This document shows positions 19,256 through 43,085 of a stretch of 64,000 nt of DNA, one piece after another (position 1 is the first letter of the stretch; each line of letters begins with the position of its first letter). A model generated the notes under the pieces. That model was given only the letters and a program-made list of their open reading frames with translations. It was not told the DNA's origin and made no database searches. Position numbers and translations under genes: made by a program. Source of the stretch: an uncultured Erysipelotrichaceae bacterium (GTDB taxonomy: Bacteria; Bacillota_I; Bacilli_A; RF39; UBA660); the NCBI GenBank assembly GCA_902801525.1, contig CADCIN010000003.1, forward strand, positions 20,096 through 84,095. Direction: 5' to 3'.

Positions 19256-19966
19256 TTATTTACTTAATCCGTTATTAATACTATCAGAACCAATACTTTT
19301 CTTCAAGAAATCAGCTAAATTCTTATCACAATACTTATCAATATAATTTAATTGTTCTTCATTAGATAGTACTGTAGTTCTTGATTGAAATATTTGACCT
19401 AACAATCTATTATCGCCAAGTAAACTTTTTATACTAGCAGAAATCATCTCATCTCTATCTACTTTTGAAATATTAAAATCAAGTCCATTTATTCTTCCAA
19501 GTGCAGTAATAAATTCTCTTTGAGTTCTACCATTACCTTCTCTAAATGGATGCATTGAATTTAAATCACCAAATAAATCTACTAAGCAAGTAAATTTCTC
19601 ATTTATAGGTAGATCAATATAATAATTTTTTTTCTTTAATTTTCTAAATATATCTTTAGAATAGTCACTAATATAACTAACATAGCAAAAAGGAATACCT
19701 TTACCTATTTCACAATTTCTAAACTCTCCAGCCCAAGGATAAACATCTTGAAATAAGTAAGAATGTATATTTTTTAAATGATTTTCATCAAAACTACCCT
19801 TAACAGGATTATTTTTAATATCAAGCATTCTCAATGAAACATATTTTCTTTCAGTAGAAACTAATAAATCATTGTCTTTAATATCAAAATTATTAACTAA
19901 AACCTCAGTATTAGGATAATACCAATAAGGATAATTATAATTTACTTTTTCCTTCATATTCATCAT
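19256..19966 (-). CDS. Fic family protein (class I, toxin-like AMP-transferase)
   Basis: Canonical Fido motif HPFREGNGRTQR. Confidence 0.9.
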   Translation of the reverse strand: MMNMKEKVNYNYPYWYYPNTEVLVNNFDIKDNDLLVSTERKYVSLRMLDIKNNPVKGSFDENHLKNIHSYLFQDVYPWAGEFRNCEIGKGIPFCYVSYISDYSKDIFRKLKKKNYYIDLPINEKFTCLVDLFGDLNSMHPFREGNGRTQREFITALGRINGLDFNISKVDRDEMISASIKSLLGDNRLLGQIFQSRTTVLSNEEQLNYIDKYCDKNLADFLKKSIGSDSINNGLSK

Positions 19967-22628: not shown

Positions 22629-23627
22629 TCAATTAGAAAACCAATAAGTTGGCATAAGTCTAAGCCCATGTTTACCACCACCAACAGGTTTATTTATTAT
22701 TTTTCCATTAATAACAAGTTCACTAGAACTACCACCATCTAAATTAGATGCATTATACGCACCATATTTATATAGAATATCTCTCACATCACTCATACTA
22801 GCACCAATACTAGAAGGAATTCTACCATTAATAACTAAAAATAAAACAATTCCATCTTTTCTTTGACCAATGGCAGTTCTAGGAGCTATACCCCATCCAC
22901 CATTACCAACTATTTTAACTTTTTTATGATTAACAATTAGAAAAGGACCAAATTCAACTGCATCTCTATAACCACTATTTAAAGCATCAAGACAGCCAAG
23001 ATTTCTCTTAAGAACTAATTTATTATCATTATTAAATCCAATAAATCCACCATTATCAATTGAAGATTTATAATCACTTAAAATTTTATTATTCTTGATA
23101 ACACAACCATGAGGAATAGCTCCATTCGAGTTCCAACCAGGATCAAAATAACCAACAGAATTCATAATTACTTTAGCTTTATTTCTTTTAGACACAGACA
23201 AAATACTCTCACCAGAAGTTAAAAAATTATTACTAATTGCAAGTTTAACATGAGAAGGATCATAAATACTAACCAAATAACCATTAAATGAACCTTCATT
23301 AATATTTATTAGTTTATATTTTTTATTTTTACTTTTCAAAATAGTTCTTTCATACTTATTACTATAAATACCTTCATTTAAACTAACTTTATTATTAGTA
23401 TCTATTAAATCAAGATTTGTATCCTCATTATTAGAAATAATATAATTATTATTATAAACTTTGTTAATATCATCTTCACTATATAATAAATAAGCCAAAT
23501 ATTTATGAGACTTAGATTTCATCGCAGAAGTTATCCAAAAATTTCTAAAAAAATTAAAAGGTCCATATAATATGAAAAGAATAATAATTAATAATGCTAA
23601 AATAATTTTAAAAATCTTTTTCTTCAT
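22629..23627 (-). CDS. phosphodiester glycosidase (NAGPA/DUF2233) family protein
   Basis: N-terminal TM anchor, RTAIGQRKDG and ASNLDGGSSS motifs. Confidence 0.75.
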   Translation of the reverse strand: MKKKIFKIILALLIIILFILYGPFNFFRNFWITSAMKSKSHKYLAYLLYSEDDINKVYNNNYIISNNEDTNLDLIDTNNKVSLNEGIYSNKYERTILKSKNKKYKLININEGSFNGYLVSIYDPSHVKLAISNNFLTSGESILSVSKRNKAKVIMNSVGYFDPGWNSNGAIPHGCVIKNNKILSDYKSSIDNGGFIGFNNDNKLVLKRNLGCLDALNSGYRDAVEFGPFLIVNHKKVKIVGNGGWGIAPRTAIGQRKDGIVLFLVINGRIPSSIGASMSDVRDILYKYGAYNASNLDGGSSSELVINGKIINKPVGGGKHGLRLMPTYWFSN

Positions 23628-23635
23628 AAACTAAA

Positions 23636-24205
23636 CTATTTAGCAATTAAAAATATAATTAAAACGATTAAAAGTAATAAAATAACATTAAACAAAATCT
23701 TATATTTATTATACCAACTAATATGATTGTCATCTAAAATATAATCATCTAATGTTTTAATGAATTCTTTTGTATGTGATTTATATTCTTTAGGTTTAAA
23801 TTTTTTCACATCTTTTAATACATCTTCTATTTTATTAAAATTCTTAAGTTCTAATATATATCTTTCTTTTACAAATTCCCTAATTACTTGTTTTTGATGA
23901 TCATTTTCATGTTCATCATATTTTTTAAGTCTTGCAGCAGCAATAACCTTCTTATTATATTTTAAACCTTCTAATATAGATCCAACTCCACCATGTGTAA
24001 TTAATAAATCACAAGACTTTATCATTTCACTAAATTTAGAAGAAGATATTAAATCAAATATTTCCATATTATCAGAACTATATTTAGTTGAACCTGCTTG
24101 TACAATTACTTTATCTTTAATAATACCTTTATCAATAGCATTATCTATAGCTTTAAGTAATCTAGTAAATTGCTTATCTTGTGTTCCTAAAGTAACTAAT
24201 ATCAT
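23636..24205 (-). CDS. PssE/Cps14G-like (Alg13-type) glycosyltransferase subunit
   Basis: MILVTLGTQ ... THGGVGS motifs. ATG at 24205 follows GGAGGG. Confidence 0.75.
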   Translation of the reverse strand: MILVTLGTQDKQFTRLLKAIDNAIDKGIIKDKVIVQAGSTKYSSDNMEIFDLISSSKFSEMIKSCDLLITHGGVGSILEGLKYNKKVIAAARLKKYDEHENDHQKQVIREFVKERYILELKNFNKIEDVLKDVKKFKPKEYKSHTKEFIKTLDDYILDDNHISWYNKYKILFNVILLLLIVLIIFLIAK

Positions 24206-24215
24206 AAACCCTCCA

Positions 24216-24689
24216 TTAATAAATAAATCCATTATAATGAGCTTTTGGATAAACTTTTAACATACCCTTCCACTGAACAATAAATAAATCAGCAACTGGA
24301 TAAATAAGCCTGCCAGTAATTGTCTTTGTATCTACATTTGCAAAACTTTCAATAAAAATAATTCTACTTCCAAAAAGTTTGCCAATTAAACACATAGGTC
24401 CAGCAGTATGTGCACCTGTAGTAATTATATAATCAGGATGTATTTTAAAATATAAATATAAACTTTTAAAACAGTTATATAATCCCTTAAAAGGATAAGA
24501 AATCATATGATGTTTAGTACCATATACTAAGAAAAATACTCTATTTAAATATTTATTTTTGAGATATAAATTAGACTTAGTCTTTTCAGTTACTATATAA
24601 TAATCATATTTTTTAAACATATCTTTCAAATTCATCATTTCAGATAGATGACCACCTGTTGAAGAAATAAATAAAACACGACTTTTCAT
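24216..24689 (-). CDS. PssD/Cps14F-like (Alg14-type) glycosyltransferase subunit
   Basis: FISSTGGHLSEM motif, paired with the Alg13-like gene downstream. Confidence 0.75.
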   Translation of the reverse strand: MKSRVLFISSTGGHLSEMMNLKDMFKKYDYYIVTEKTKSNLYLKNKYLNRVFFLVYGTKHHMISYPFKGLYNCFKSLYLYFKIHPDYIITTGAHTAGPMCLIGKLFGSRIIFIESFANVDTKTITGRLIYPVADLFIVQWKGMLKVYPKAHYNGFIY

Positions 24690-24693
24690 AAAA

Positions 24694-25839
24694 TCACTTC
24701 TTTCCAACTAAATCAAACCAATACTCTTTCACAATATCACTAGTATATTTTTTAGATTCTTTTCTAGCTTCTTTTCCTATTTCTTTTCTTTTTTCTTCAT
24801 TTTTCATAAGATCTTTTAACTTTTTAATAAATGCATTGTAACTTCTATTTTTAATTAAATAACCATTCTTGCCACTTGAAATTAATTCTCTTGCTCCCTC
24901 AGCAGATGAAAATGCAATACAAGGAAGTCCATGACTCATTGCTTCTATTAATACAATTCCAAATGATTCAGTAAAAGAAGTCATAACATATATACTTGAC
25001 TTATTTAAATATTTATCAATATATTCTTTATTTTGAAATCCATGTAATGTGACATTATTTTCTAATTTATGTTTCTTAATAAAATTAACTAATTTATTTT
25101 TTTCTTTACCATCACCAATAATATCAAGTTTCCAATCAGGATAATCTCTAATTAATAAATTATATATTTTTAATAAGTCAAGAAAACCCTTTTCTTCAGA
25201 TAATCTACCAACAGATATAATTCTTTTCTCAGTAAGTGTTGATAATCTCTTAGGTATAGAATCAACTATATTTGGAATATAAACGCATTTACACTTTGAT
25301 TTTTTAAGTTCTAATTCTTTACTATAAAATTTCTTTAATTGCTTTGAGACAAGTACTAAGTAATCTAAATTATTACATGATCTAGTAATTTTTCTGGCAT
25401 ATGCAAAATCATCATGATAATGATTATGTTCCCAACCTATTTTAAATACATCATCACTTCCATATTCACCAAGCCATTCGTCAAATATATCACGACTTGA
25501 AATAATTATATTAGAATCAGTATTTTTAATATAATTAACCATAGTTTTCTTTCTAAGCCTTAAAATCTTATAACTCTTAAGTCCCTCTTTAAAAACAGAT
25601 AAGAATTTCTTATTATGCATTGCAGATTTAAACTCATCTCTATTAGGTACTAAATCTTCTATTAAATATTTAACTTTTACTTTTTCATTAATTTCAAATA
25701 CAGGTTTATCAAATAATTTATATGAGCATGCTATTTCTACTTCATATTTTTCACTTAAAACATTTGCAAGTGCAACAATCGATTTTTCAATACCGCCATA
25801 TCCTAAATGCAATGCTAAAATTGATATTTTTTTCATCAA
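24694..25839 (-). CDS. family 4 (GT-B) glycosyltransferase
   Basis: C-terminal SFTESFGIVLIEAMSHGLPCIA (EX7E-type) motif. Confidence 0.85.
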   Translation of the reverse strand: MMKKISILALHLGYGGIEKSIVALANVLSEKYEVEIACSYKLFDKPVFEINEKVKVKYLIEDLVPNRDEFKSAMHNKKFLSVFKEGLKSYKILRLRKKTMVNYIKNTDSNIIISSRDIFDEWLGEYGSDDVFKIGWEHNHYHDDFAYARKITRSCNNLDYLVLVSKQLKKFYSKELELKKSKCKCVYIPNIVDSIPKRLSTLTEKRIISVGRLSEEKGFLDLLKIYNLLIRDYPDWKLDIIGDGKEKNKLVNFIKKHKLENNVTLHGFQNKEYIDKYLNKSSIYVMTSFTESFGIVLIEAMSHGLPCIAFSSAEGARELISSGKNGYLIKNRSYNAFIKKLKDLMKNEEKRKEIGKEARKESKKYTSDIVKEYWFDLVGKK

Positions 25840-30067: not shown

Positions 30068-31831
30068 TTAAAATTTGAATAAATCATTTTCATTAATGTT
30101 CATTTCAGGATTATACAATCTTTTATAAAGTGAGGATGTTTTTATCAATTCTTTGTGATTTCCACTTGCCAATACCTTACCATTTTCAATTAAATAAATA
30201 ATATCTGCATCCATAATTGTTGATAATCTATGAGCTACAATAATTATAGTGTGTGTGCTAACCAAATCATCTATTGTTTTTTTAATATATTCTTGTGATT
30301 CATTGTCTAAAGCTGATGTTGCTTCATCAAATAGTATTACTTTAGCATTTTTTAACAAAGTTCTTGCAATTGCAATTCTTTGCTTTTGACCACCAGATAA
30401 ATTTACACCACCTTCACCAATTATAGTATTATACTTTTTAGGCAATGACATAATATAGTCATCTATATATGCCTTTTTACATACATTCCTAATTTCTTCT
30501 AAAGTAGTATCGTTTTTAACCATTTTAAAATTATCTATAATACTTTGATTAAAAAGATATGGATCTTGGCGAATTATTGAAATGTTCTTTCTCAAATTAT
30601 CTTCTGTTAAATCTTTAATATCAACATCATTTATCTTAATTTTACCTAATGACGTATCAAAATATCTCATTAAAAGATTAAATATTGTCGATTTACCTTG
30701 ACCAGATTTTCCAACAATTGCAATTTTTTTATTTGGTAGTAATTGCATTGTTAATCCATTTAAAATATAATCTTCATCTTTTCTATATTTAAATTTTACG
30801 TCGTCGAATGTTATTTTTATTTTATTGTCATTGATTTCTTTTGTCCCAAACTTCTCATCTTTATATAAACGATTATTAACTAGTTCATCAATTCTTTTTA
30901 AGGATACAACAACTTTATTATAATTAACACCGAAATCAGATAAATTTTCAATAACACTGTCAAATCTCCATATTAATGTTTGAATTACTAAAAATAATTT
31001 TATATCAATATTTCCTTTGAAAACTAATAGACCTAGTGTTAAAAATATAATAAATTCAATTGTAAAATATACAAAATTGTTAATCCCATAATATATATTT
31101 TCATCGTTAGAAATTTTCTTTTGCTTATAATTAATATTTTCTATTATTTTTATCATTCTAGAACTAGCATTATCTTTGATCCCCAATGCTTTTATTTCTC
31201 TAATACCATTAATATCTTCAGTAGCATTTTTAGATAATTTATCACTTTCTTTACTAATTTCTTCTTGAACTTTTTTGATTCTAGGATAATAAATATTAGC
31301 TAAAATATACATTATTATTCCAAGTATTATAAATTCTAAACCAACAAAAATTGAAACATAAAACGAATAAATTAATATTACTATGGCAGTTATAAATCTT
31401 GAAGATAAATCAATTATCCTTTTTAAAAGTGATATAATCTTTTCCAAATCATTATTTAATCTATTGGTTAATTCTCCAACACCCATATCTTCAAATGCAA
31501 TAGCTGGTAAATCTAATATTTTATTATATAAATTTATTTGACCATTTTTAATAAAATTCTTTTCTAATTTATTATAAAGCAGTTCTTGAATTGTACTACA
31601 TATAGACCAAGTTAATATATTTGATAAGCCAAATAATGCTAGAAATATTATAAAATTAGCTTGTTGATTAGTAGTTAAATTATCAACTGCATAAGCCCAA
31701 AATATAGATATTGATAATGGTAATACATTTAATAGAATACTAAATATAACATATAAAATGATTTGTAATTTATCATTTTTTAAATATTTTAACATCAGTT
31801 TAAAATGTTTTAAATCCTTCACAAAAATCAC
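30068..31831 (-). CDS. ABC exporter, fused permease/ATPase (type 1 exporter fold), no C39 peptidase domain
   Basis: Six N-terminal TM helices, Walker A GKSGQGKST, signature LSGGQKQR and Walker B ILFDEATSALD. Confidence 0.9.
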   Translation of the reverse strand: MIFVKDLKHFKLMLKYLKNDKLQIILYVIFSILLNVLPLSISIFWAYAVDNLTTNQQANFIIFLALFGLSNILTWSICSTIQELLYNKLEKNFIKNGQINLYNKILDLPAIAFEDMGVGELTNRLNNDLEKIISLLKRIIDLSSRFITAIVILIYSFYVSIFVGLEFIILGIIMYILANIYYPRIKKVQEEISKESDKLSKNATEDINGIREIKALGIKDNASSRMIKIIENINYKQKKISNDENIYYGINNFVYFTIEFIIFLTLGLLVFKGNIDIKLFLVIQTLIWRFDSVIENLSDFGVNYNKVVVSLKRIDELVNNRLYKDEKFGTKEINDNKIKITFDDVKFKYRKDEDYILNGLTMQLLPNKKIAIVGKSGQGKSTIFNLLMRYFDTSLGKIKINDVDIKDLTEDNLRKNISIIRQDPYLFNQSIIDNFKMVKNDTTLEEIRNVCKKAYIDDYIMSLPKKYNTIIGEGGVNLSGGQKQRIAIARTLLKNAKVILFDEATSALDNESQEYIKKTIDDLVSTHTIIIVAHRLSTIMDADIIYLIENGKVLASGNHKELIKTSSLYKRLYNPEMNINENDLFKF

Positions 31832-31929: not shown

Positions 31930-32823
31930 TTATTTTCTTTCAATTAAATACTTATTATCTTCATTTATTTGTTTTTGTAGTATTTCTAATTCTTTTATTC
32001 CATGGTTATTCTTTAATATTTCCATTTGATTTCTTGCAGATTCATTTAATTTTATAAGTCTTTCACTTTGACTTATTCCTAATTTAATAAATTCAGCATT
32101 AGAATTTTCTAAATTATTCAATATTACTAAATGAAGTAAATCTGTATAATCTCTCATATTCCCATCTTCTGCTAACTTAGGATTGGATTCTCTCCATTCT
32201 TTAGCAGTCATACCAAATAATGCAACATTTAATACATCAGCTTCTTCAGCATATACAAATTTCTTTTGTTTTTCAGTTAGTGTTGGAACAATATAATTTT
32301 TAACAGCATCAGTATGAACAACATAATTAGTTTTAGATAAAATTCTGTTAGCATGCCATTCTATCTTTTCTTGATATGCTTCATTTTTCTTTAATCTTTC
32401 AAATTCCTTAATTAAATACAATTTAAATTCTGGACTTAACCAACTTGCAAACTCAAAAGCTATATCAGGATGAGCAAATGTACCTATACTATATTTGCCA
32501 CCTTTAGAATATATTCCAATTGCATTAGTTCTTTGTATCCATCTCTTTGGACTTAATGTAAATGATGGGTAGCCTACTTCCTTGATTTTAATTTCACTGA
32601 ATTCCGTGAAATTAAAATTTTCATTATTTAATTGTTCCCATAAACCAATATAATCATATGTTCCTTTATTACTCATCCAGTGAATAATTACATTAGCTGG
32701 ATTATCTGGATTAGAATATTTTGCTAAATCCGTTAATGAAATATAATCAACATCTCCAATTCTCATAATTCCTATTTTATTATTTTTAACATCTATTTCT
32801 GTTTTTACCACATTATTTTTCAT
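31930..32823 (-). CDS. KilA-N domain protein
   Basis: ISLTDLAKYSNPDNPANVIIHWMSNKGTYDYIGLWEQLNN matches the KilA-N-type N-terminus common in mobile elements. Confidence 0.7.
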   Translation of the reverse strand: MKNNVVKTEIDVKNNKIGIMRIGDVDYISLTDLAKYSNPDNPANVIIHWMSNKGTYDYIGLWEQLNNENFNFTEFSEIKIKEVGYPSFTLSPKRWIQRTNAIGIYSKGGKYSIGTFAHPDIAFEFASWLSPEFKLYLIKEFERLKKNEAYQEKIEWHANRILSKTNYVVHTDAVKNYIVPTLTEKQKKFVYAEEADVLNVALFGMTAKEWRESNPKLAEDGNMRDYTDLLHLVILNNLENSNAEFIKLGISQSERLIKLNESARNQMEILKNNHGIKELEILQKQINEDNKYLIERK

Positions 32824-32968: not shown

Positions 32969-34318
32969 TTATCGTTCTAAATCATCATCTTTAGCATAAT
33001 TACTACTAAATTCATTTTGTATAATTTTTAAATCATCATCATCAATTATTTCTTCTTCATGTAATTCATCAATAAAATCATCATACCTATTTGAAGAAAA
33101 GAATTTGTCTTGTAAGAACTTAATAAATTTTTTCCATAATTCTTTAAAGTAATCTAATGCCTCTTGTAATTTATCAACTTTATCTTCTAGCATATCAATA
33201 GTATCATTTGCAAAATCTAATCTATTTTCCAAATCACTAATTCTATCTTCACGAGTAGTGATTTTTTTCTTTAATTCTTTAACTTCATTAGAGTGATTTT
33301 TTAAATCTTGTTCATATTTATCTAATATTATATTTATATCATTAGAATTTTTTAAATTAGATGTAGTATCATTAGTTTGTTCTATATATTTTTTAATTTT
33401 ATCTATATCATCGTTTGAAATAGTATAATTATTTTTATTCATTATTGTTGGTTTTAAGTTGTTTATAATATCATTTATTTCATTTGATTTATTTTGTAAT
33501 TGATTGGCTTTATCATTTAATTCTTTTAATTGTTTCTTATGCTTTTCTTGTTCTTTTCTAAATTTATTATAATCTCTCATATTAGCAACATTTATATCAA
33601 TGTTTCTACCTTCTTCTTTATCTTTAAGAGAGTAGTTAAGATTATATATTCTATTAAATGAACTAATACAATATTCTCTCATTTTATCTTGGATATTAAC
33701 TAAACTAATTTTAGTAAATACATCTGATTTACCAACTTGTTTTTCCATACCATTTTTCATTCCATCTTTAAATGGAACACCAACAATATGTAAATGTGGT
33801 GATGATTCATCAAAGTGAATTGTTGCATTTGCTATCTTAAAATTAGGAACAACTTCTTCTAAATATTGTATTTGTTCTTTATAAACATCAATCATCTTCT
33901 TTTGAAACTTATCATCTTTATCAGACCAAAAATCCATATCTCCAAGTTCAATGATTATCTCACAAGCAAGATCTCTTTTATTATCATTTGAAATATGATT
34001 AAAATAATTATCTATCTTTCTATCATTCCTAGTTTGTTTTTCATTGTATTTAATTCGTGCATCTTCAAATAAATCTAAATATAAATTTTTAGTATCTTCT
34101 ACAACAGATGATGTTCCTTTTATAGTTTTAATTAGTTCTTGTTCTTCATCATATTTTCTTAAATTATGCTTATCAACTTTTGAAAGTTGTTGAAGATTTT
34201 GTATTGAATTATTATTAAGTGAAGTAGTTCCAGATTGATTAGATTTTGCTGTTTTTCTTGCTTTTTTAGATTTGTTTTTATCATTACCTAAATGTAGTGA
34301 ATAAGATAGTTCTATCAT
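32969..34318 (-). CDS. MobV-family relaxase (Mob/Pre plasmid recombination enzyme)
   Basis: HFDESSPHLHIVGVP (HxDExxPHxH motif) in the N-terminal domain, and a long coiled-coil C-terminus. Confidence 0.85.
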   Translation of the reverse strand: MIELSYSLHLGNDKNKSKKARKTAKSNQSGTTSLNNNSIQNLQQLSKVDKHNLRKYDEEQELIKTIKGTSSVVEDTKNLYLDLFEDARIKYNEKQTRNDRKIDNYFNHISNDNKRDLACEIIIELGDMDFWSDKDDKFQKKMIDVYKEQIQYLEEVVPNFKIANATIHFDESSPHLHIVGVPFKDGMKNGMEKQVGKSDVFTKISLVNIQDKMREYCISSFNRIYNLNYSLKDKEEGRNIDINVANMRDYNKFRKEQEKHKKQLKELNDKANQLQNKSNEINDIINNLKPTIMNKNNYTISNDDIDKIKKYIEQTNDTTSNLKNSNDINIILDKYEQDLKNHSNEVKELKKKITTREDRISDLENRLDFANDTIDMLEDKVDKLQEALDYFKELWKKFIKFLQDKFFSSNRYDDFIDELHEEEIIDDDDLKIIQNEFSSNYAKDDDLER

Positions 34319-34791: not shown

Positions 34792-36737
<1,946 letters not shown>

Positions 36738-36892: not shown

Positions 36893-36950
36893 AAAAAATT
36901 CTACAAATATATTGCAGAATTTTTTTATTATAAGGTTGCTCCTTATAAAG
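36893..36950 (-). terminator. tandem hairpins terminating the rSAM operon
   Basis: TTATAAGG-ttgct-CCTTATAA lies just after the stop codon. It is followed by AAAAAATTCTACAA/TTGCAGAATTTTTT, which has a T-run on the minus strand. Confidence 0.55.
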
Positions 36951-36952
36951 TT

Positions 36953-37600
36953 TTAAAGTTTTCTTACCAATTGCTTTTGTGGGGAAGATACGTATTTAGA
37001 TTTTAAATCATTATATACACTTATATAATAATCTTTAGCCTCCTTAGTTTTACCACTTTTTAATAATTCTATTACAGGTAAAACCATATTAGCATAAATA
37101 TTATCTAAAATCTCATCCTTATCAGAACTATTAGATATTTTTTCAACTATTTGTGGAGCTGTTTTATAATATTCCAATACAATTTTTCTGAATTCTGGAT
37201 CTTCTTCAACAAGTTTGTCTCTGTACATTCTAAGTATATTTAATTCATCACAATCATCTGCCAAACCAAGATGATCAACAGCAGCAGTTGTTATATAGCA
37301 ACCACCGCCATCGCTTGAATTACTCCAACCAGAATCGCTCCAAGATCCACTCGAGTTATTCCAGCCAGAATCACTCCAAGATCCACTTGAGTTATTCCAA
37401 CCTCTATCCATCCAAGATCCACTTGAATTATTCCAACCTCTATCCATCCAAGATCCACTTGAGTTATTCCAACCTTTATCTAACCAAGAAGCAGTTGCCA
37501 TAGCTGGTATTAGTCTATCTTCTGAAGAAAAGACATCAACAATTGAATTTAGTTTTTTAGAGAAAACTTTTAAATTTTTTATTCCTTCCTGAGCAGCCAT
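36953..37600 (-). CDS. Trp-rich tandem-repeat protein, putative radical-SAM substrate/precursor, with C-terminal CYITTAA...DDC...LRMYRD domain
   Basis: AAAGGAGGTG RBS before the ATG at 37600 (MAAQEGIK...). Residues 39-100 hold 10 Trp in GWNNSSGSW(M/S)D(R/S) repeats. It is the last gene of the rSAM operon. Confidence 0.8.
   Translation of the reverse strand: MAAQEGIKNLKVFSKKLNSIVDVFSSEDRLIPAMATASWLDKGWNNSSGSWMDRGWNNSSGSWMDRGWNNSSGSWSDSGWNNSSGSWSDSGWSNSSDGGGCYITTAAVDHLGLADDCDELNILRMYRDKLVEEDPEFRKIVLEYYKTAPQIVEKISNSSDKDEILDNIYANMVLPVIELLKSGKTKEAKDYYISVYNDLKSKYVSSPQKQLVRKL
37301..37486. repeat. 36-bp in-frame tandem repeat, 4 full copies plus partial flanking copies
   Basis: Near-identical units ccaagatccact(t/c)ga(g/a)ttattcca(a/g)cc(tctat/agaat)c on the plus strand. 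Confidence 0.85.
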
Positions 37601-37623
37601 TTTTTCACCTCCTTTCATTGCAT

Positions 37624-38574
37624 TTAAATTGATTTAACTCTTCTTAGTATTTTTTCTTTATCAGGTTCTAAATCATAAGTTGATTTCCAAATGCCACTAC
37701 AATATTCTTTTACATCACATAACTGACATTCATCGTAATTTGTATTACAATTTGAATTCATATTTTCACTCATATTGTCCACTGACTCATCATTAGGAGC
37801 AATATAAGTTAAACTTTTGCTACTATTTATTTTATAATACTTCCAATAGTATGGGTCTACTAAACATAAAGGAGTCTCAATAATTTCAAGTTGTCTACCA
37901 CAATTATTTTTATTTCTTTCAAATGAATCTAAACTATCTTCTACATATGGTTGTAAATCTGTAAAGTTTATATATAGTTCATTTATATTTTTACGACATC
38001 TCCCAGAATAATCTGTTGCACATAATTCAAAGTCAATATTATTAGAAAAGTAATTACATAAATATTCTAAAGTCTCTCTCATATCTTGGACTGTAACTTT
38101 ATTCATTATATTTTTAATTGTTACTTGAATATTTCTTTCATCCAAATTTTCTAATCCTTTCATTGTTTCAATGTAGCTTCCATCTGCTCCTGTTAATCTG
38201 TCATGAATATTCTTGTTTAATGAATGAATTGCTGTAATATATCTAAATCTTTTAAAGTCGTAATCATCACCCAAAGACTCAATAATACTATCTACAAAGT
38301 TTTTATCTTTACATTTTGTGGCATTAGAAAGGATAGTAATATATGAATTTGATTTACCTAAAATTTTTAAAACCTCTAAGAAATTTGGATTTAAAGTTGG
38401 CTCTCCTCCAGAAATTGTTATGTGTAAATCATCACCATAAGTACTTAACTTAGTAATATTTTTTTTAATTACTTCTGAATCTAATTGTCCATGTAGTCTA
38501 TCATAAGTACTTAGTGGACAATTTAAACAATTGTGATTACATTTGTAACCTAAAGCAATATAAGAATTAATCAT
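37624..38574 (-). CDS. radical SAM protein (second maturase-like enzyme)
   Basis: C12-x3-C16-x2-C19 (YKCNHNCLNCP), the SGGEPTL glycine-rich motif and a C-terminal CNTNYDECQLCDVKEYCSG cluster. Confidence 0.85.
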   Translation of the reverse strand: MINSYIALGYKCNHNCLNCPLSTYDRLHGQLDSEVIKKNITKLSTYGDDLHITISGGEPTLNPNFLEVLKILGKSNSYITILSNATKCKDKNFVDSIIESLGDDYDFKRFRYITAIHSLNKNIHDRLTGADGSYIETMKGLENLDERNIQVTIKNIMNKVTVQDMRETLEYLCNYFSNNIDFELCATDYSGRCRKNINELYINFTDLQPYVEDSLDSFERNKNNCGRQLEIIETPLCLVDPYYWKYYKINSSKSLTYIAPNDESVDNMSENMNSNCNTNYDECQLCDVKEYCSGIWKSTYDLEPDKEKILRRVKSI

Positions 38575-38576
38575 TT

Positions 38577-39941
38577 CTATTCCCCCAATCTTATATTTTT
38601 TAGCGTTTGTTCAATTATTCTTTCATAAATAATCTTATTAAACTCACATTCTACTTCATCATATTTCATTTTACCATTCGAGTAGATAATTCTGCTTGTG
38701 CATCCCCCTTGACAATAGTACTGCCAAGGACAAGATTTACATTCACTATTAATCTTTTTCTGAAAATATATATTATTTTTTTTAGATTTATTAATTTGAC
38801 TTATTAAATCATAATTTGAAGATAATTTTCCATCTTTATAGATTGAACCGATTTTAACATTTTTATAATCCATCATTTCGCAAGGATATATATCACCATT
38901 TATATCTATTGACAACAGATTAATTCCACCTTTACATCCATTGGAGATGCAATAGCTATTATTACTTCTCTCGTTTAAATTACTAATTCTCATTTGAATA
39001 TTTCCCTCACTAAATTTAATTCCTAACAAATTATATAGTTCAACTACATCAAATAATTTATTAGCAAAAAATCTAACTTCTTCAAGTGATAAACCAATTC
39101 TATCTTCATTAGCATTAGGATTATCTTTGACTATATTGAACTTCATACTTGATATTTTAAGTTCGTTAGTAAAATAATTTATTATATCCGTAATATCCTT
39201 ATAATTATACTTTGTAACAACTGTTATACCACTAACATTGTCACCATAATATTTTTTTAGATTTTTTATTCCTTTTCTTACCATTTCATTTGATGATTTA
39301 TCATTGACCAATCTTCTTTGTATATCTTGATGCTTTTTAGTTCCATCGAGGCTTACTCCAACATTTACTTTCATATCAAACAATCTTTTTGCAATAGAAT
39401 CTGTAATTAAACTGCCATTAGTTTCAATATCAATTTTTAACATAATATCTGTATCTTTAAAAAAATTATATACAAATTCTAACTTGTCAATTGCTAATAA
39501 TGGTTCTCCGCCCCAAACTTGAACTGTAACATTCTTTAATTTTCTTTTTTTAATAATATTTAATATATAAGAACAAATATCTTGTAATCTGTCATTAGTT
39601 ATAACTCTATTATCATCAAGATTTCTAAAACAATATAAGCAGTCAAAATTACATTTTTTTGTAACATCGATGATGAAATAAATATTATTATTTTTTTCTT
39701 TTGATATAGAAATCTTAGGACTTTTAAGTGTTGCTAGTCCGTGTTGCAACATTTTGAATTTTAAGTTTTCTTTAATATTTTTGCTCATAATTCTATTTAA
39801 TAATTCTGCATCAACAATCATGGAACATCCATTTTTATTTAATAAAAATGAATATTTATTCCTTTCATTAGTAAACACAAAGATATCGTCAACATAAAAA
39901 TTATTATCAATATTAAATTTTTTCAATAATTCTTTTCTCAT
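38577..39941 (-). CDS. radical SAM/SPASM-domain protein with N-terminal RRE-like extension
   Basis: C97-x3-C101-x2-C104 (KKCNFDCLYCF), the WGGEPLL motif and C-terminal Cys clusters (CISNGCKGG, CEMMD, CKSCPWQYYCQGGC). Confidence 0.9.
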   Translation of the reverse strand: MRKELLKKFNIDNNFYVDDIFVFTNERNKYSFLLNKNGCSMIVDAELLNRIMSKNIKENLKFKMLQHGLATLKSPKISISKEKNNNIYFIIDVTKKCNFDCLYCFRNLDDNRVITNDRLQDICSYILNIIKKRKLKNVTVQVWGGEPLLAIDKLEFVYNFFKDTDIMLKIDIETNGSLITDSIAKRLFDMKVNVGVSLDGTKKHQDIQRRLVNDKSSNEMVRKGIKNLKKYYGDNVSGITVVTKYNYKDITDIINYFTNELKISSMKFNIVKDNPNANEDRIGLSLEEVRFFANKLFDVVELYNLLGIKFSEGNIQMRISNLNERSNNSYCISNGCKGGINLLSIDINGDIYPCEMMDYKNVKIGSIYKDGKLSSNYDLISQINKSKKNNIYFQKKINSECKSCPWQYYCQGGCTSRIIYSNGKMKYDEVECEFNKIIYERIIEQTLKNIRLGE

Positions 39942-39950
39942 GACAGCATC

Positions 39951-40220
39951 TCACTCTACAATAAAATTTCGTAATAAATATTCATATAAATTTTTTGGTT
40001 TCTCAGATATTTTTTTAAGTATTTTTATAAGTTGTTTGTAATTTGTTCCACGATGGAGAGCAGTTAATAATTCTTTTAAATTATTATTTGAACTTTTTAA
40101 TATTACTTCTTTGTTATAAAGAGTATTGTATAAATACAAGTAACCATCATCTATAAAAAATTTTACATAGTTATTTAAATAATTTAAATTGATATTATTT
40201 TTATTATAAACTATTTGCAT
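39951..40220 (-). CDS. small PqqD-like (RiPP recognition element-type) protein
   Basis: 89 aa, first gene of the operon after a GGGGGGAG RBS. Its size and the pattern (..LYLYNTLYNKEVILKSSNNNLKELLTAL..TNYKQLIKIL) resemble stand-alone PqqD/RRE proteins. Assigned from memory. Confidence 0.5.
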   Translation of the reverse strand: MQIVYNKNNINLNYLNNYVKFFIDDGYLYLYNTLYNKEVILKSSNNNLKELLTALHRGTNYKQLIKILKKISEKPKNLYEYLLRNFIVE

Positions 40221-40332
40221 AAAGATCTCCCCCCAAAATTTAGGATTATTATAATATAAAATTCATTAAATTGCAACATGTTTAAATTAATCACTAAAAA
40301 ATAGCTATGTAAATATTCCATTAAAAAATTAA

Positions 40333-40350
40333 ATATGTTAATCAACATAT
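40333..40350. promoter_or_regulatory. 7-4-7 palindrome upstream of the rSAM operon
   Basis: ATATGTT-aatc-AACATAT, about 115 nt upstream of the first operon gene. Confidence 0.3.
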
Positions 40351-41348: not shown

Positions 41349-43085
41349 ATGAATAACAAAGTTGAAGTAATAGCACCAACAAAGTGCTTAAATAAATTCA
41401 ATAATAATAAATTAATACGGGCTTGTGCTTATTGTAGAGTATCAACTGATAATGAAGATCAGAAAACTAGTTATGATTCACAAAGAATACATTATAAAAA
41501 TTATATTGAAGAAAACTCTAACTATGAATTTGTAGGTATCTATGCTGATGAAGGTATAACTGGAACTCAAACTAAAAAGAGAGAACAATTTAATTCTATG
41601 ATTAATAATGCTCTAAATGGTAAGATAGATTTAATAATAGCTAAATCTATTTCTAGATTTGCAAGAAATACAGTTGATACTTTAAATTGTGTTAGAACTC
41701 TAAGAGAACATAATGTAGATGTCTATTTTGAAAAAGAAAATATCCATACACTAGGTCTATCTAATGAATTATTTTTAACTTTATATAGTGCCTTCGCTCA
41801 AGCAGAAAGTGAATCAATATCAGAAAATGTTAAAGCTGGAGTCAGAATGAAAATGAAGCGTGGTGAATTAGTTGGTAAGTATGCACCATTTGGTTATATT
41901 TATGATAAAGAATTAAATAAGCTAGTCATAGATGAAAGCAAGAAATATATTATTATTTATATTTTTGAAGAATACTCTAAGGGTGTAGGTTTTAGAACTA
42001 TTGCTTTAAATCTTAATGAAAATAATATACCAAGTCCAACTGGTGTTAAATGGTGTCATGCTTCAGTTCGTAGAGTTATCACTAATGAGAAATATGTTGG
42101 AGATTTAAAGACTGGTAAATATTATTCTGATAATGTAATATCTCATAAAAGAAAGATAAATTATGGCGAGAAAGAACAATTCTTTACTTCTAATCATCAC
42201 GAACCTATTATATCACGTGAACTATGGGATAAATGCCAAGCAATATTACAAAAACGAAGTAAGATAGTTAAACCTGATGGTAATAGAGATAAATTCAGTA
42301 GAAAATATCCTTTTAGTAGTAAAATTTATTGTGGTATTTGTGGCGAAAGATTTATAAGACGTTCTTATAAAATAAGAAAGACTAATAAAGAAGTAGCTTA
42401 TTGGATATGTAGAAGTCATAGAAATAAAATAGAATGCTCTAATTTACTTCATTATAGACAAGAAGAATTAGAAGATATATTTGTTAAAGTTTATAACAAA
42501 CTAATTGAGAACAAAGAACAATATATTAATTCATTTATCAAAAAAGTTAATGATACTCTTTTAAATAATGATGATTATAATAACTCTAATAAAATTAAAG
42601 AAGAAATATCTAAACTTCAAAACAGATTATCAAATCTTATTGATTTAAAATTAGATAATAAAATATCTAAAGATATATTAGAAAGTAAAGAGTTTGAAAT
42701 TACTAATCAAATAAATGAATTAGAAAGTAAACTTGTATCTAATAAAGATTTAGAACTTACTAGAAAACAAAAGTTAGAACAAATAAACACAATATCTAAA
42801 ACATTAAAAGAATATCCCGGTCTTACTAAATTTAATGAAGATATATTTAATAATTTAGTAGATAGAATTATAATTGGTGAAGTATTAGATAACGGTGAAG
42901 AAGATTTATATAAAGTTAAATTTATACTTAAAACAGGTGAAATGATTAAAGATAATCTACCTAATAATACTTTAAAGATTGGCGACTATTTGGAACATTA
43001 TGGATTTAAAGTTAATAAGCAAGAATTAGAAATAAAAGAAGATAACGTGACTGCCTATGTGTTACGTAAGAACTCTTATGTATAG
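41349..43085 (+). CDS. large serine recombinase (intact)
   Basis: ACAYCRVSTDNEDQ catalytic N-terminus, a recombinase domain, a Zn ribbon (CGICGERF...CRSH) and a coiled coil, in 578 aa. Confidence 0.9.
   Translation: MNNKVEVIAPTKCLNKFNNNKLIRACAYCRVSTDNEDQKTSYDSQRIHYKNYIEENSNYEFVGIYADEGITGTQTKKREQFNSMINNALNGKIDLIIAKSISRFARNTVDTLNCVRTLREHNVDVYFEKENIHTLGLSNELFLTLYSAFAQAESESISENVKAGVRMKMKRGELVGKYAPFGYIYDKELNKLVIDESKKYIIIYIFEEYSKGVGFRTIALNLNENNIPSPTGVKWCHASVRRVITNEKYVGDLKTGKYYSDNVISHKRKINYGEKEQFFTSNHHEPIISRELWDKCQAILQKRSKIVKPDGNRDKFSRKYPFSSKIYCGICGERFIRRSYKIRKTNKEVAYWICRSHRNKIECSNLLHYRQEELEDIFVKVYNKLIENKEQYINSFIKKVNDTLLNNDDYNNSNKIKEEISKLQNRLSNLIDLKLDNKISKDILESKEFEITNQINELESKLVSNKDLELTRKQKLEQINTISKTLKEYPGLTKFNEDIFNNLVDRIIIGEVLDNGEEDLYKVKFILKTGEMIKDNLPNNTLKIGDYLEHYGFKVNKQELEIKEDNVTAYVLRKNSYV

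Follow-up and report, generated by a model that had tools for sequence, protein, structure and literature searches.

An HXS-like mobile radical-SAM cassette with a tryptophan-repeat substrate in gut Bacillota

Introduction

HXS, the HxsABCD anti-phage system (TIGR03976-03979), is the described system against which we compare a four-gene cassette on the minus strand at positions 36953-40220 of a 64,000-nucleotide stretch of DNA from an uncultured Erysipelotrichaceae bacterium (contig CADCIN010000003.1; hereafter the window). In HXS, the protein HxsA is matured by HxsB, HxsC and HxsD, of which HxsD binds HxsC; in E. coli, hxsDBCA gave protection from 110 of 113 phages, all four genes being required, and mature HxsA acts in the periplasm by means of basic HxS repeats and a domain that binds peptidoglycan (Li et al., Nat Commun 2026, PMC13128918). 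Almost all HXS systems occur in Pseudomonadota (99.7%) and have the gene order D-B-C-A (99.6%) (PMC13128918). An earlier annotation of the window made from its letters (the sequence-only reading) took HXS to be defined by bioinformatics only, a view overtaken by its experimental demonstration as an anti-phage system (PMC13128918). No other description of Hxs variants was found in the literature searched.

Two further groups of systems are relevant to the chemistry. The triceptides are represented here by OscB/GrrM with OscA/GrrA, XncB and MscB/FxsB (TIGR04260/04261); OscB joins C7 of Trp to an Asn or Asp at position i+2, through the beta-carbon of the latter. Among the darobactins and dynobactins, the dynobactin maturase joins Trp C6 to the Asn beta-carbon. 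In this study we find that the cassette is a conserved and mobile four-gene module built around two radical S-adenosylmethionine (radical-SAM) enzymes, and that its sequences place these enzymes firmly as distant members of the HxsB and HxsC lineages. On balance, and with some reserve, we favour the view that it is a self-contained, horizontally mobile HXS-type module that makes a Trp-cross-linked protein effector, probably for defence.

Results

The cassette encodes HxsB-like and HxsC-like enzymes

The cassette consists of four minus-strand open reading frames (ORFs) of 89, 454, 316 and 221 aa. We label them S (accessory protein in the HxsD position, 39951..40220, 89 aa), B (HxsB-like radical SAM/SPASM enzyme, 38577..39941, 454 aa), C (HxsC-like radical SAM enzyme, 37624..38574, 316 aa) and A, the substrate protein. 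The longest ORF of A spans 36953-37618 (221 aa), and its start is most likely the second ATG at 37600, 7 nt past AAAGGAGG, which gives a protein of 215 aa. With A starting there, the gaps S-B, B-C and C-A are 9, 2 and 23 nt, exactly as the sequence-only reading had counted them.

A Radical_SAM domain was found by Pfam search in both B and C, and the cysteine motifs noted earlier in the two proteins were borne out. B carries an N-terminal extension of ~90 aa, the triplet C97/C101/C104 (C97x3C101x2C104) and eight Cys at 331-432 in a SPASM arrangement (C331, 336, 354, 401, 404, 410, 414 and 432, including CKSCPWQYYCQGGC), and it passes the Pfam SPASM model (PF13186) with 21.7 bits at a cut-off of 21.5. 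In C, the triplet C12/C16/C19 (C12x3C16x2C19) lies at the extreme N-terminus; Pfam gave no SPASM match for this protein, which has only a four-Cys C-terminal cluster (C276, 283, 286 and 292; Cx6Cx2Cx5C) that includes CQLCDVKEYC.

The best NCBIfam family for C was HxsC (TIGR03977) with 112.9 bits, below its cut-off of 267.9, and the next family scored 55. This agrees with the earlier view of the operon as a module for radical-SAM modification of a protein or peptide. For B, the top scores were DynA (123 bits), anaerobic sulfatase maturase (120 bits) and HxsB (116 bits), all below their cut-offs. The alignment to HxsB (TIGR03978; 115.7 bits, cut-off 370) includes the N-terminal extension. Scores against other maturases also fell short of their cut-offs, with 123 bits (NF041298, cut-off 450) and 79 bits (NF038005, cut-off 650) for the dynobactin and darobactin maturases, 72 bits for GrrM/OscB (TIGR04261, cut-off 310), 77 bits for FxsB (cut-off 370), 97 bits for YhhB (cut-off 445) and 82 bits for AmcB (cut-off 425). 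The quinohemoprotein amine dehydrogenase maturase QhpD gave 91 bits. The sequence-only reading had named the sulfatase maturases as a family to which the enzymes might turn out to belong; the score of B against anaerobic sulfatase maturase (TIGR03942) is far from the cut-off of 349, and neither the window neighbourhood nor the related loci examined yielded a sulfatase.

Comparison with five reference Hxs loci (Klebsiella, Paraburkholderia, Nostoc, Adhaeribacter and Leptospira) separated the two enzymes cleanly. B matched 5/5 HxsB and 0/5 HxsC proteins, C matched 5/5 HxsC and 0/5 HxsB, and, with the gene order D-B-C-A, this upholds the HxsABCD-like layout recognised earlier. When C was searched by tblastn against 72,556 plasmids, 362 records were returned, nearly all annotated hxsC, at 20-25% identity. 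The closest solved structures were those of anaerobic sulfatase maturase and CteB for B, and of SkfB for C.

The substrate carries an array of W-x-N and W-x-D triads

Protein A is made up of a leader, a repeat core and a C-terminal domain, all read from the minus strand. The leader (residues 1-38, 37487..37600) contains a [LIV]x[LIV][FY]SxK motif, here LKVFSKK, that was found in 101 of 111 A homologues. A has no signal peptide, its N-terminus being without a hydrophobic run. The repeat core (residues 39-97, 37310..37486) comprises 4.5 copies of GWNNSSGSW(M/S)D(R/S) with 10 Trp, and a 36-bp DNA repeat of 4.9 copies spans 37314-37489 within the gene.

All 10 Trp of the window protein sit in W-x-N or W-x-D triads. 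Among 105 homologues the same holds for 990 of the 996 Trp ahead of the C-terminal domain (561 W-x-N and 429 W-x-D; 99.4%), and position i+1 varies freely. The homologues of A form 113 clusters at 90% identity; relatives have 4-12 Trp, with a variable number of repeat copies, and the repeat region is disordered in the AlphaFold2 (AF2) model. The sequence-only reading had not recognised this substrate motif from any characterised family. Since every Trp lies in such a triad, the motif is recognisable, from its sequence, as the aromatic-X-X3 triad of triceptides that OscB cross-links. The repeat core also matches GrrA/OscA1 (TIGR04260), in the repeat region only and below cut-off (21.6 bits, E = 2.6e-4, cut-off 31).

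A gave no match to HxsA (TIGR03979); its repeats lack His and its N-terminus is not signal-peptide-like. Formally, His-x-Ser may be the same kind of triad as W-x-N/D. In Klebsiella HxsA a signal peptide is followed by HRSHSS repeats, then by a Ser-rich linker and a PG_binding-like domain. Even among canonical Hxs loci the substrate differs in type and position, its gene coming first in some: in two (L088 and L089) hxsA2, which encodes a peptide of ~96 aa, lies upstream of hxsD, and in a third (L090) a peptidoglycan-binding protein is encoded there.

The substrate ends in a widespread CFI-box domain

The remainder of A (residues 98-215, 36953..37309 with the stop codon included) is a GGG linker followed by a CFI-box-CTERM domain (NF041770; 43.5 bits, cut-off 40, residues 107-176 of the 221-aa ORF). 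C101 and C117 of this domain are invariant across homologues. With the family alignment as input, AF2 modelled it as a five-helix bundle (residues 102-203) with a predicted local distance difference test score (pLDDT) of 70-87, for which Foldseek returned nothing at E <= 0.001 from the PDB or BFVD. The presence of this known C-terminal domain speaks for a protein, and not a small peptide, as the modified product.

The CFI-box is very common and seldom comes with Trp repeats. When 1.84 billion representatives were scanned with HMMER, 7,979 clusters (50% identity) had a CFI-box at E <= 1e-3, and only ~12 of these ~8,000 clusters also span the Trp-repeat region. Among the GTDB species genomes there were about five full-length matches, in an uncultured rabbit-gut Bacilli metagenome-assembled genome (82% identity), Lachnospiraceae, Blautia and Eubacteriales; the remaining matches, from many phyla, have the CFI-box alone in common with A. 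Elsewhere the domain is stand-alone, or C-terminal to HNH nucleases, ankyrin repeats or zinc ribbons, and it ends proteins with a dynamin-like GTPase plus Sel1, with PIN plus protein kinase, or with an extracellular contractile injection system (eCIS) core. Most of these other CFI-box proteins have no HxsB/C-like neighbour. The term CFI-box-CTERM was not found in the literature searched, and the domain's pattern of fusions would resemble that of conflict-system adaptor domains. Homology to HxsA through this domain was rejected: Klebsiella HxsA has no CFI-box, and no protein named HxsA was found among the best 120 of 278 CFI-box profile matches.

A parallel family was found in which 4-5 Cys-Pro repeats of the QCNPCHPCYPDQ type are followed by a Gly linker and a CFI-box (L014 9635-11550; L136 7001-8823). 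In both loci a single gene for a StsB/AlbA-like SPASM radical-SAM enzyme comes right after, and from their sequences these proteins are probably a second kind of radical-SAM-modified CFI-box protein. No description of this family was found in the literature searched. Because it exists, a repeat array joined to a CFI-box seems to be a recurring design of radical-SAM substrates.

Individual examples of the other architectures include three loci with the dynamin-like GTPase and Sel1 (L015, L030 and L080), two with PIN, protein kinase and a Zn finger (L026 and L036), two with the eCIS core (L019 and L031) and two HNH proteins (P0233 and P0273). One locus (L027) has three CFI-box ORFs inside 11 kb, and two IMG/VR contigs (L096 and L105) encode Q/N/S/T-rich proteins of ~370 aa ending in a CFI-box.

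The four genes travel together in mobile surroundings

S, B, C and A were found together in every locus with enough flank to judge (L001/2/11, L004/10, L005, L008, L009 and L092-L095, plus the window). The earlier reading had pointed out that its interpretation would suffer if the repeat protein did not accompany the enzymes in other genomes; A occurs with both enzymes in all loci examined. The closest relative (L008) is syntenic and 82% identical in amino-acid sequence. Across nine independent neighbourhoods neither a protease nor an exporter is conserved, which extends to related loci the earlier observation that the operon encodes neither a protease nor a transporter. In the Lachnospiraceae versions a gene for a PseH-like GNAT overlaps the end of A; it is absent from the window and from L008.

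The genes next to related cassettes include several of defence or mobility type. In L005 (6850-12443) the order is substrate gene, 398-aa radical-SAM enzyme, 399-aa HD-domain protein, small protein, B and C, and this cassette adjoins a type II restriction enzyme, a methylase and Vsr. In L004 (3-5344) a RADAR RdrB-like adenosine deaminase (E = 4e-28) is encoded directly upstream of the Blautia-type copy, preceded in turn by an ORF of >896 aa with no PADLOC match. A PD-T4-6-like kinase is encoded nearby in L001. The copy in L092 lies in a capsule locus that includes the candidate defence genes PDC-S13 and PDC-S02, and that in L095 in a flagellin-glycosylation island. Large serine recombinases adjoin the cassette in the window, L001 and L094.

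The DNA of the window is chromosomal, with ScpA/ScpB and a MiaB-like gene to the right and a pseudouridine synthase and a methyltransferase to the left, and the cassette lies within an inserted stretch of ~12 kb among these housekeeping genes. An intact large serine recombinase of 578 aa (41349-43085, plus strand) is divergent from the cassette. Directly downstream of the cassette on the minus strand is a split one in two overlapping ORFs (34792-36716; Resolvase domain 35991-36716, Recombinase domain 34792-36105), which suggests a frameshift or pseudogene. A Mob_Pre relaxase (32969-34318) and a KilA-N protein (31930-32823), both on the minus strand, lie on the opposite side of the cassette from the intact recombinase. 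Together the recombinases, relaxase and KilA-N gene suggest one or two integrated mobilisable elements of ~12 kb. From the co-occurrence and the setting of its relatives, we regard it as firm that the cassette is a conserved, mobile four-gene radical-SAM module.

Megablast of the cassette and of 23 kb of flank against plasmids and phages returned nothing, and no close sequenced relative of the window is in those sets. A phage origin was rejected, the CFI-box occurring in only 1 of 50,697 phage records; of 40 IMG/VR loci with a CFI-box, none has the cassette. A Clostridium perfringens plasmid (L007; NZ_CP075938.1, 17034-27867) was rejected as a relative because it has a different cluster, similar to those for peptides that are made on ribosomes and modified after translation (RiPPs). 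That cluster encodes an Os1348/NHLP-clan precursor, two radical-SAM enzymes, two DUF6365 proteins, a nucleotidyltransferase, an ABC transporter and its own MtnK and MetK.

Further from the cassette, at ~5 kb, the minus strand of the window encodes a fused ABC exporter (ABC_membrane plus ABC_tran, 587 aa; 30068-31831). It was rejected as the transporter of the cassette, being unconserved elsewhere and separated from it by the recombinase, relaxase and KilA-N genes. Other minus-strand genes of the window encode a Fic/DOC protein (19256-19966) and a cluster of glycosyltransferases (22629-25839), one of which, a GT4, weakly matches the 'GT4-conflict' Pfam family.

S occupies the place of HxsD

S is conserved immediately upstream of B throughout the related loci. 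The PqqD-like label given to it in the sequence-only reading could not be confirmed and stands as a lead: S and six homologues gave no NCBIfam or Pfam match to HxsD, PqqD (PF05402) or any other family, even at E <= 10. S has no hidden Markov model match to HxsD (TIGR03976) and lacks its LYW and LLNDYxLRE motifs. No similarity was found between S and the N-terminal domain of B, and no match to S was found among PDB sequences. Its single-sequence AF2 model (pLDDT 57) was too poor for a fold search. HxsD homology was rejected, as profile-profile alignment by hhalign gave a probability of 1.3% and only size and position are in common. Because no relationship to a known family is detectable, we treat S as a positional analogue of HxsD and, by that analogy, as the candidate substrate-recognition partner of the HxsC-like enzyme C.

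Expression signals

The operon has its own upstream signals, as first described from the sequence. A ribosome-binding site, GGGGGGAG (40227..40234, minus strand), is read directly from the sequence 6 nt 5' of the S ATG. An 8-bp inverted repeat (ATATGTT..AACATAT, ~40333..40350) lies 5' of the operon and forms a hairpin when folded; it is a possible operator. The upstream region overall folds no better than shuffled sequences (z = +1.7). A promoter-like TTGCAA-17-TATAAT (40248..40276, minus strand) just 5' of S is weak evidence, given that a consensus scan found such hexamers no more often than in shuffled sequence in this AT-rich DNA (G+C ~25%).

Two adjacent hairpins, the second followed by a U-run, lie directly 3' of the A stop codon (36893..36948, minus strand). 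Their folding energy is -19.8 kcal/mol (z = -7.3), a stability that none of 200 shuffles reached. This double hairpin is the likely intrinsic terminator of the operon, in keeping with the tandem terminators proposed earlier; a consensus terminator scan missed it because the scan demands three G-C pairs.

Discussion

A working model for the cassette

Beyond the observed gene content, family relations, motif conservation and co-occurrence, we infer a chemistry, a division of labour between the enzymes and a role in defence. A would be made with an N-terminal leader bearing LKVFSKK, to be recognised by the N-terminal extension of B and by S. S would serve C, which has no N-terminal domain of its own, much as HxsD binds HxsC in the E. 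coli HXS experiments. The two radical-SAM enzymes would abstract hydrogen atoms within the repeat array, and each Trp would be cross-linked to the Asn or Asp that lies two residues downstream, at its beta-carbon. The result would be up to ten three-residue cyclophanes (W-x-N and W-x-D), possibly with one enzyme for each type of triad. The helical CFI-box domain would be retained and so the product would be a rigidified, Trp-studded protein rather than a small secreted peptide, with the CFI-box probably providing localisation or the binding of a partner.

As HXS is experimentally an anti-phage system, it offers a candidate biological role for the cassette, and defence against phage or mobile elements is plausible by analogy with this precedent and from the genomic context. 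Since A lacks a signal peptide, a peptidoglycan-binding domain and basic repeats, its mode of action must differ from that of periplasmic HxsA, and the DNA trap proposed for HxsA in the periplasm cannot apply here.

Several observations weigh against an HXS-type module with a role in defence. The scores of the enzymes are all far under the curated Hxs cut-offs, and B scores equally against DynA, anaerobic sulfatase maturase and HxsB. S aligns so poorly with HxsD (the hhalign probability of 1.3% given above) that no similarity is detectable, and A has no domain in common with HxsA. For HXS itself, the reported modification is +8 Da and not the -2 Da of a simple cyclophane (PMC13128918). PADLOC run on the four proteins gave no model match beyond generic radical-SAM similarity to viperins, and membership of a PADLOC system was rejected on that account. 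Evidence from defence genes nearby is anecdotal, coming from ~4 of 9 independent contexts counted without background statistics, and some loci lie within capsule or flagellin-glycosylation islands.

Alternative explanations

The first alternative, which we consider unlikely, is a classical RiPP pathway. A would then be a multi-core precursor from which a protease encoded elsewhere excises the 12-residue units; these would be exported as triceptide-like or darobactin-like antibiotics or signals, and the CFI-box would be only a follower or recognition scaffold. The W-x-N/D triads and the weak GrrA/OscA1 match would fit, as would the similarity of B to peptide maturases of the DynA, DarE, PapB and YhhB types. 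A repeat number that varies (4-12 Trp) is what multi-core precursors show, some Hxs systems use the short HxsA2 peptides (~96 aa), and the window has an ABC exporter (30068-31831) ~5 kb away. However, a protease or exporter is conserved in none of the nine independent neighbourhoods, and recombinase, relaxase and KilA-N genes part that ABC gene from the cassette. The units have no conserved flanking cleavage motifs. The CFI-box, moreover, is autonomous: its ~8,000 clusters at 50% identity are mostly without a radical-SAM neighbour, and many are fused to enzymes.

Quite improbable is a second alternative, in which the module matures an envelope-associated or cofactor-bearing protein with no part in conflict, such as a redox protein with a Trp-derived quinone or a factor linked to surface polysaccharide. 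The resemblance of B to QhpD (91 bits) would suit this account, as would the position of several loci inside capsule, flagellin-glycosylation or GlmS/VanZ regions and the PseH-like GNAT that overlaps the end of A in Lachnospiraceae. But no dehydrogenase or other client enzyme co-occurs with the cassette, the repeat number is variable, and the GNAT is absent from the window and L008. Surface-glycan islands are themselves hypervariable hot spots that gather mobile and defence genes.

That the cassette is decaying mobile-element cargo with no current function is very hard to credit: the frameshifted serine recombinase (34792-36716) does adjoin it, but none of the four ORFs is broken, ribosome-binding sites and a terminator are in place, no catalytic Cys is missing, the closest relative retains 82% amino-acid identity and the same synteny, and the triads are 99.4% conserved.

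Taken together, these alternatives are less likely than an HXS-type module with a protein effector because a conserved protease or exporter is missing, the CFI-box stands as a domain on its own, and the genes are intact and conserved.

Implications

HXS was shown to be a potent and broad anti-phage system only in 2026 and is nearly confined to Pseudomonadota. The cassette is a previously undescribed Gram-positive variant of an HXS-type system, in which gut Bacillota have turned a pair of HxsB/HxsC-type enzymes to an entirely different effector. If the role in defence is true, it would be a case of a radical-SAM-matured protein effector in Gram-positive bacteria. Since W-x-N/D has a chemical precedent in the triceptides, a concrete hypothesis follows, namely that Hxs-type enzyme pairs make three-residue cross-links. 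The cassette may also suit biochemistry better than HxsA, which is reported to be insoluble. Our analysis ties the uncharacterised but very common CFI-box to radical-SAM-modified proteins and to conflict-type fusions, and it reveals the parallel Cys-Pro-repeat family with its own radical-SAM enzyme.

We raise a wider possibility only tentatively, and as a whole we doubt it: proteins with a repeat array and a CFI-box may form a broad and unrecognised class of radical-SAM-armoured effectors in prokaryotic conflict. His-x-Ser of HXS and Trp-x-Asn/Asp would then share a three-residue cross-link logic. HXS-type immunity would reach Gram-positive gut bacteria, with an effector that is intracellular or wall-associated, unlike periplasmic DNA trapping. 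The CFI-box would be a common adaptor or localisation module through which HNH, PIN-kinase and dynamin-like effectors also join the same pathway.

Comparison with known systems

The likeness to HXS lies first in organisation. The cassette has the order D-B-C-A in one operon, its proteins of 89/454/316/215 aa compare with 90/462/370/211 aa for Klebsiella hxsD-B-C-A, and both kinds of system are found on plasmids or in mobile regions. B corresponds to HxsB and C to HxsC one-to-one by sequence, a C-terminal CxxCx5C cluster is common to C and HxsC, and in both systems the substrate has three-residue aromatic-x-polar repeats followed by a globular C-terminal domain. The differences are nonetheless considerable. 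The enzymes are only 20-25% identical; C starts at the radical-SAM motif, whereas Klebsiella HxsC has ~90 extra N-terminal residues; and B has a full 8-Cys SPASM region, whereas Klebsiella HxsB has fewer Cys. S is not detectably related to HxsD. A has Trp-x-Asn/Asp where HxsA has His-x-Ser, it is without a signal peptide or basic DNA-binding residues, and a CFI-box replaces the peptidoglycan-binding domain. The hosts are Gram-positive gut Bacillota, which have no periplasm.

With the triceptide systems the cassette shares aromatic-X-X3 triads that recur along the substrate, their first residue Trp and their third Asn or Asp, as cross-linked by OscB, in a Gly/Ser-rich repeat context and with a SPASM-type maturase. 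It differs in having two radical-SAM enzymes instead of one, and A carries a 115-aa C-terminal domain that is predicted to fold. The link to the darobactins and dynobactins is that DynA is the top NCBIfam family for B, and that DynA forms a C-C bond between Trp and the Asn beta-carbon in a WN-rich core. Precursors in those pathways, however, are short single-core peptides exported from Gram-negative producers, with neither a second radical-SAM enzyme nor a CFI-box.

As a member of the CFI-box-CTERM family, A keeps the invariant C...C, R..R, YY and AP in its C-terminal 115 residues, although most of the family have other N-terminal parts (HNH, PIN-kinase, dynamin-Sel1, eCIS core, Zn ribbons or none). 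The Cys-Pro-repeat CFI-box proteins have the same succession of repeat array, Gly-rich linker and CFI-box, and a radical-SAM/SPASM gene overlaps the substrate gene. Their repeats are of the QCNPCHPCYPDQ type and probably undergo thioether chemistry, and they have a single radical-SAM enzyme, with no HxsB/C-like pair and no small protein.

Judged by its sequences, the cassette thus falls outside the bounds of the HXS, triceptide and darobactin/dynobactin families, and it works like a hybrid of HXS and triceptide systems.

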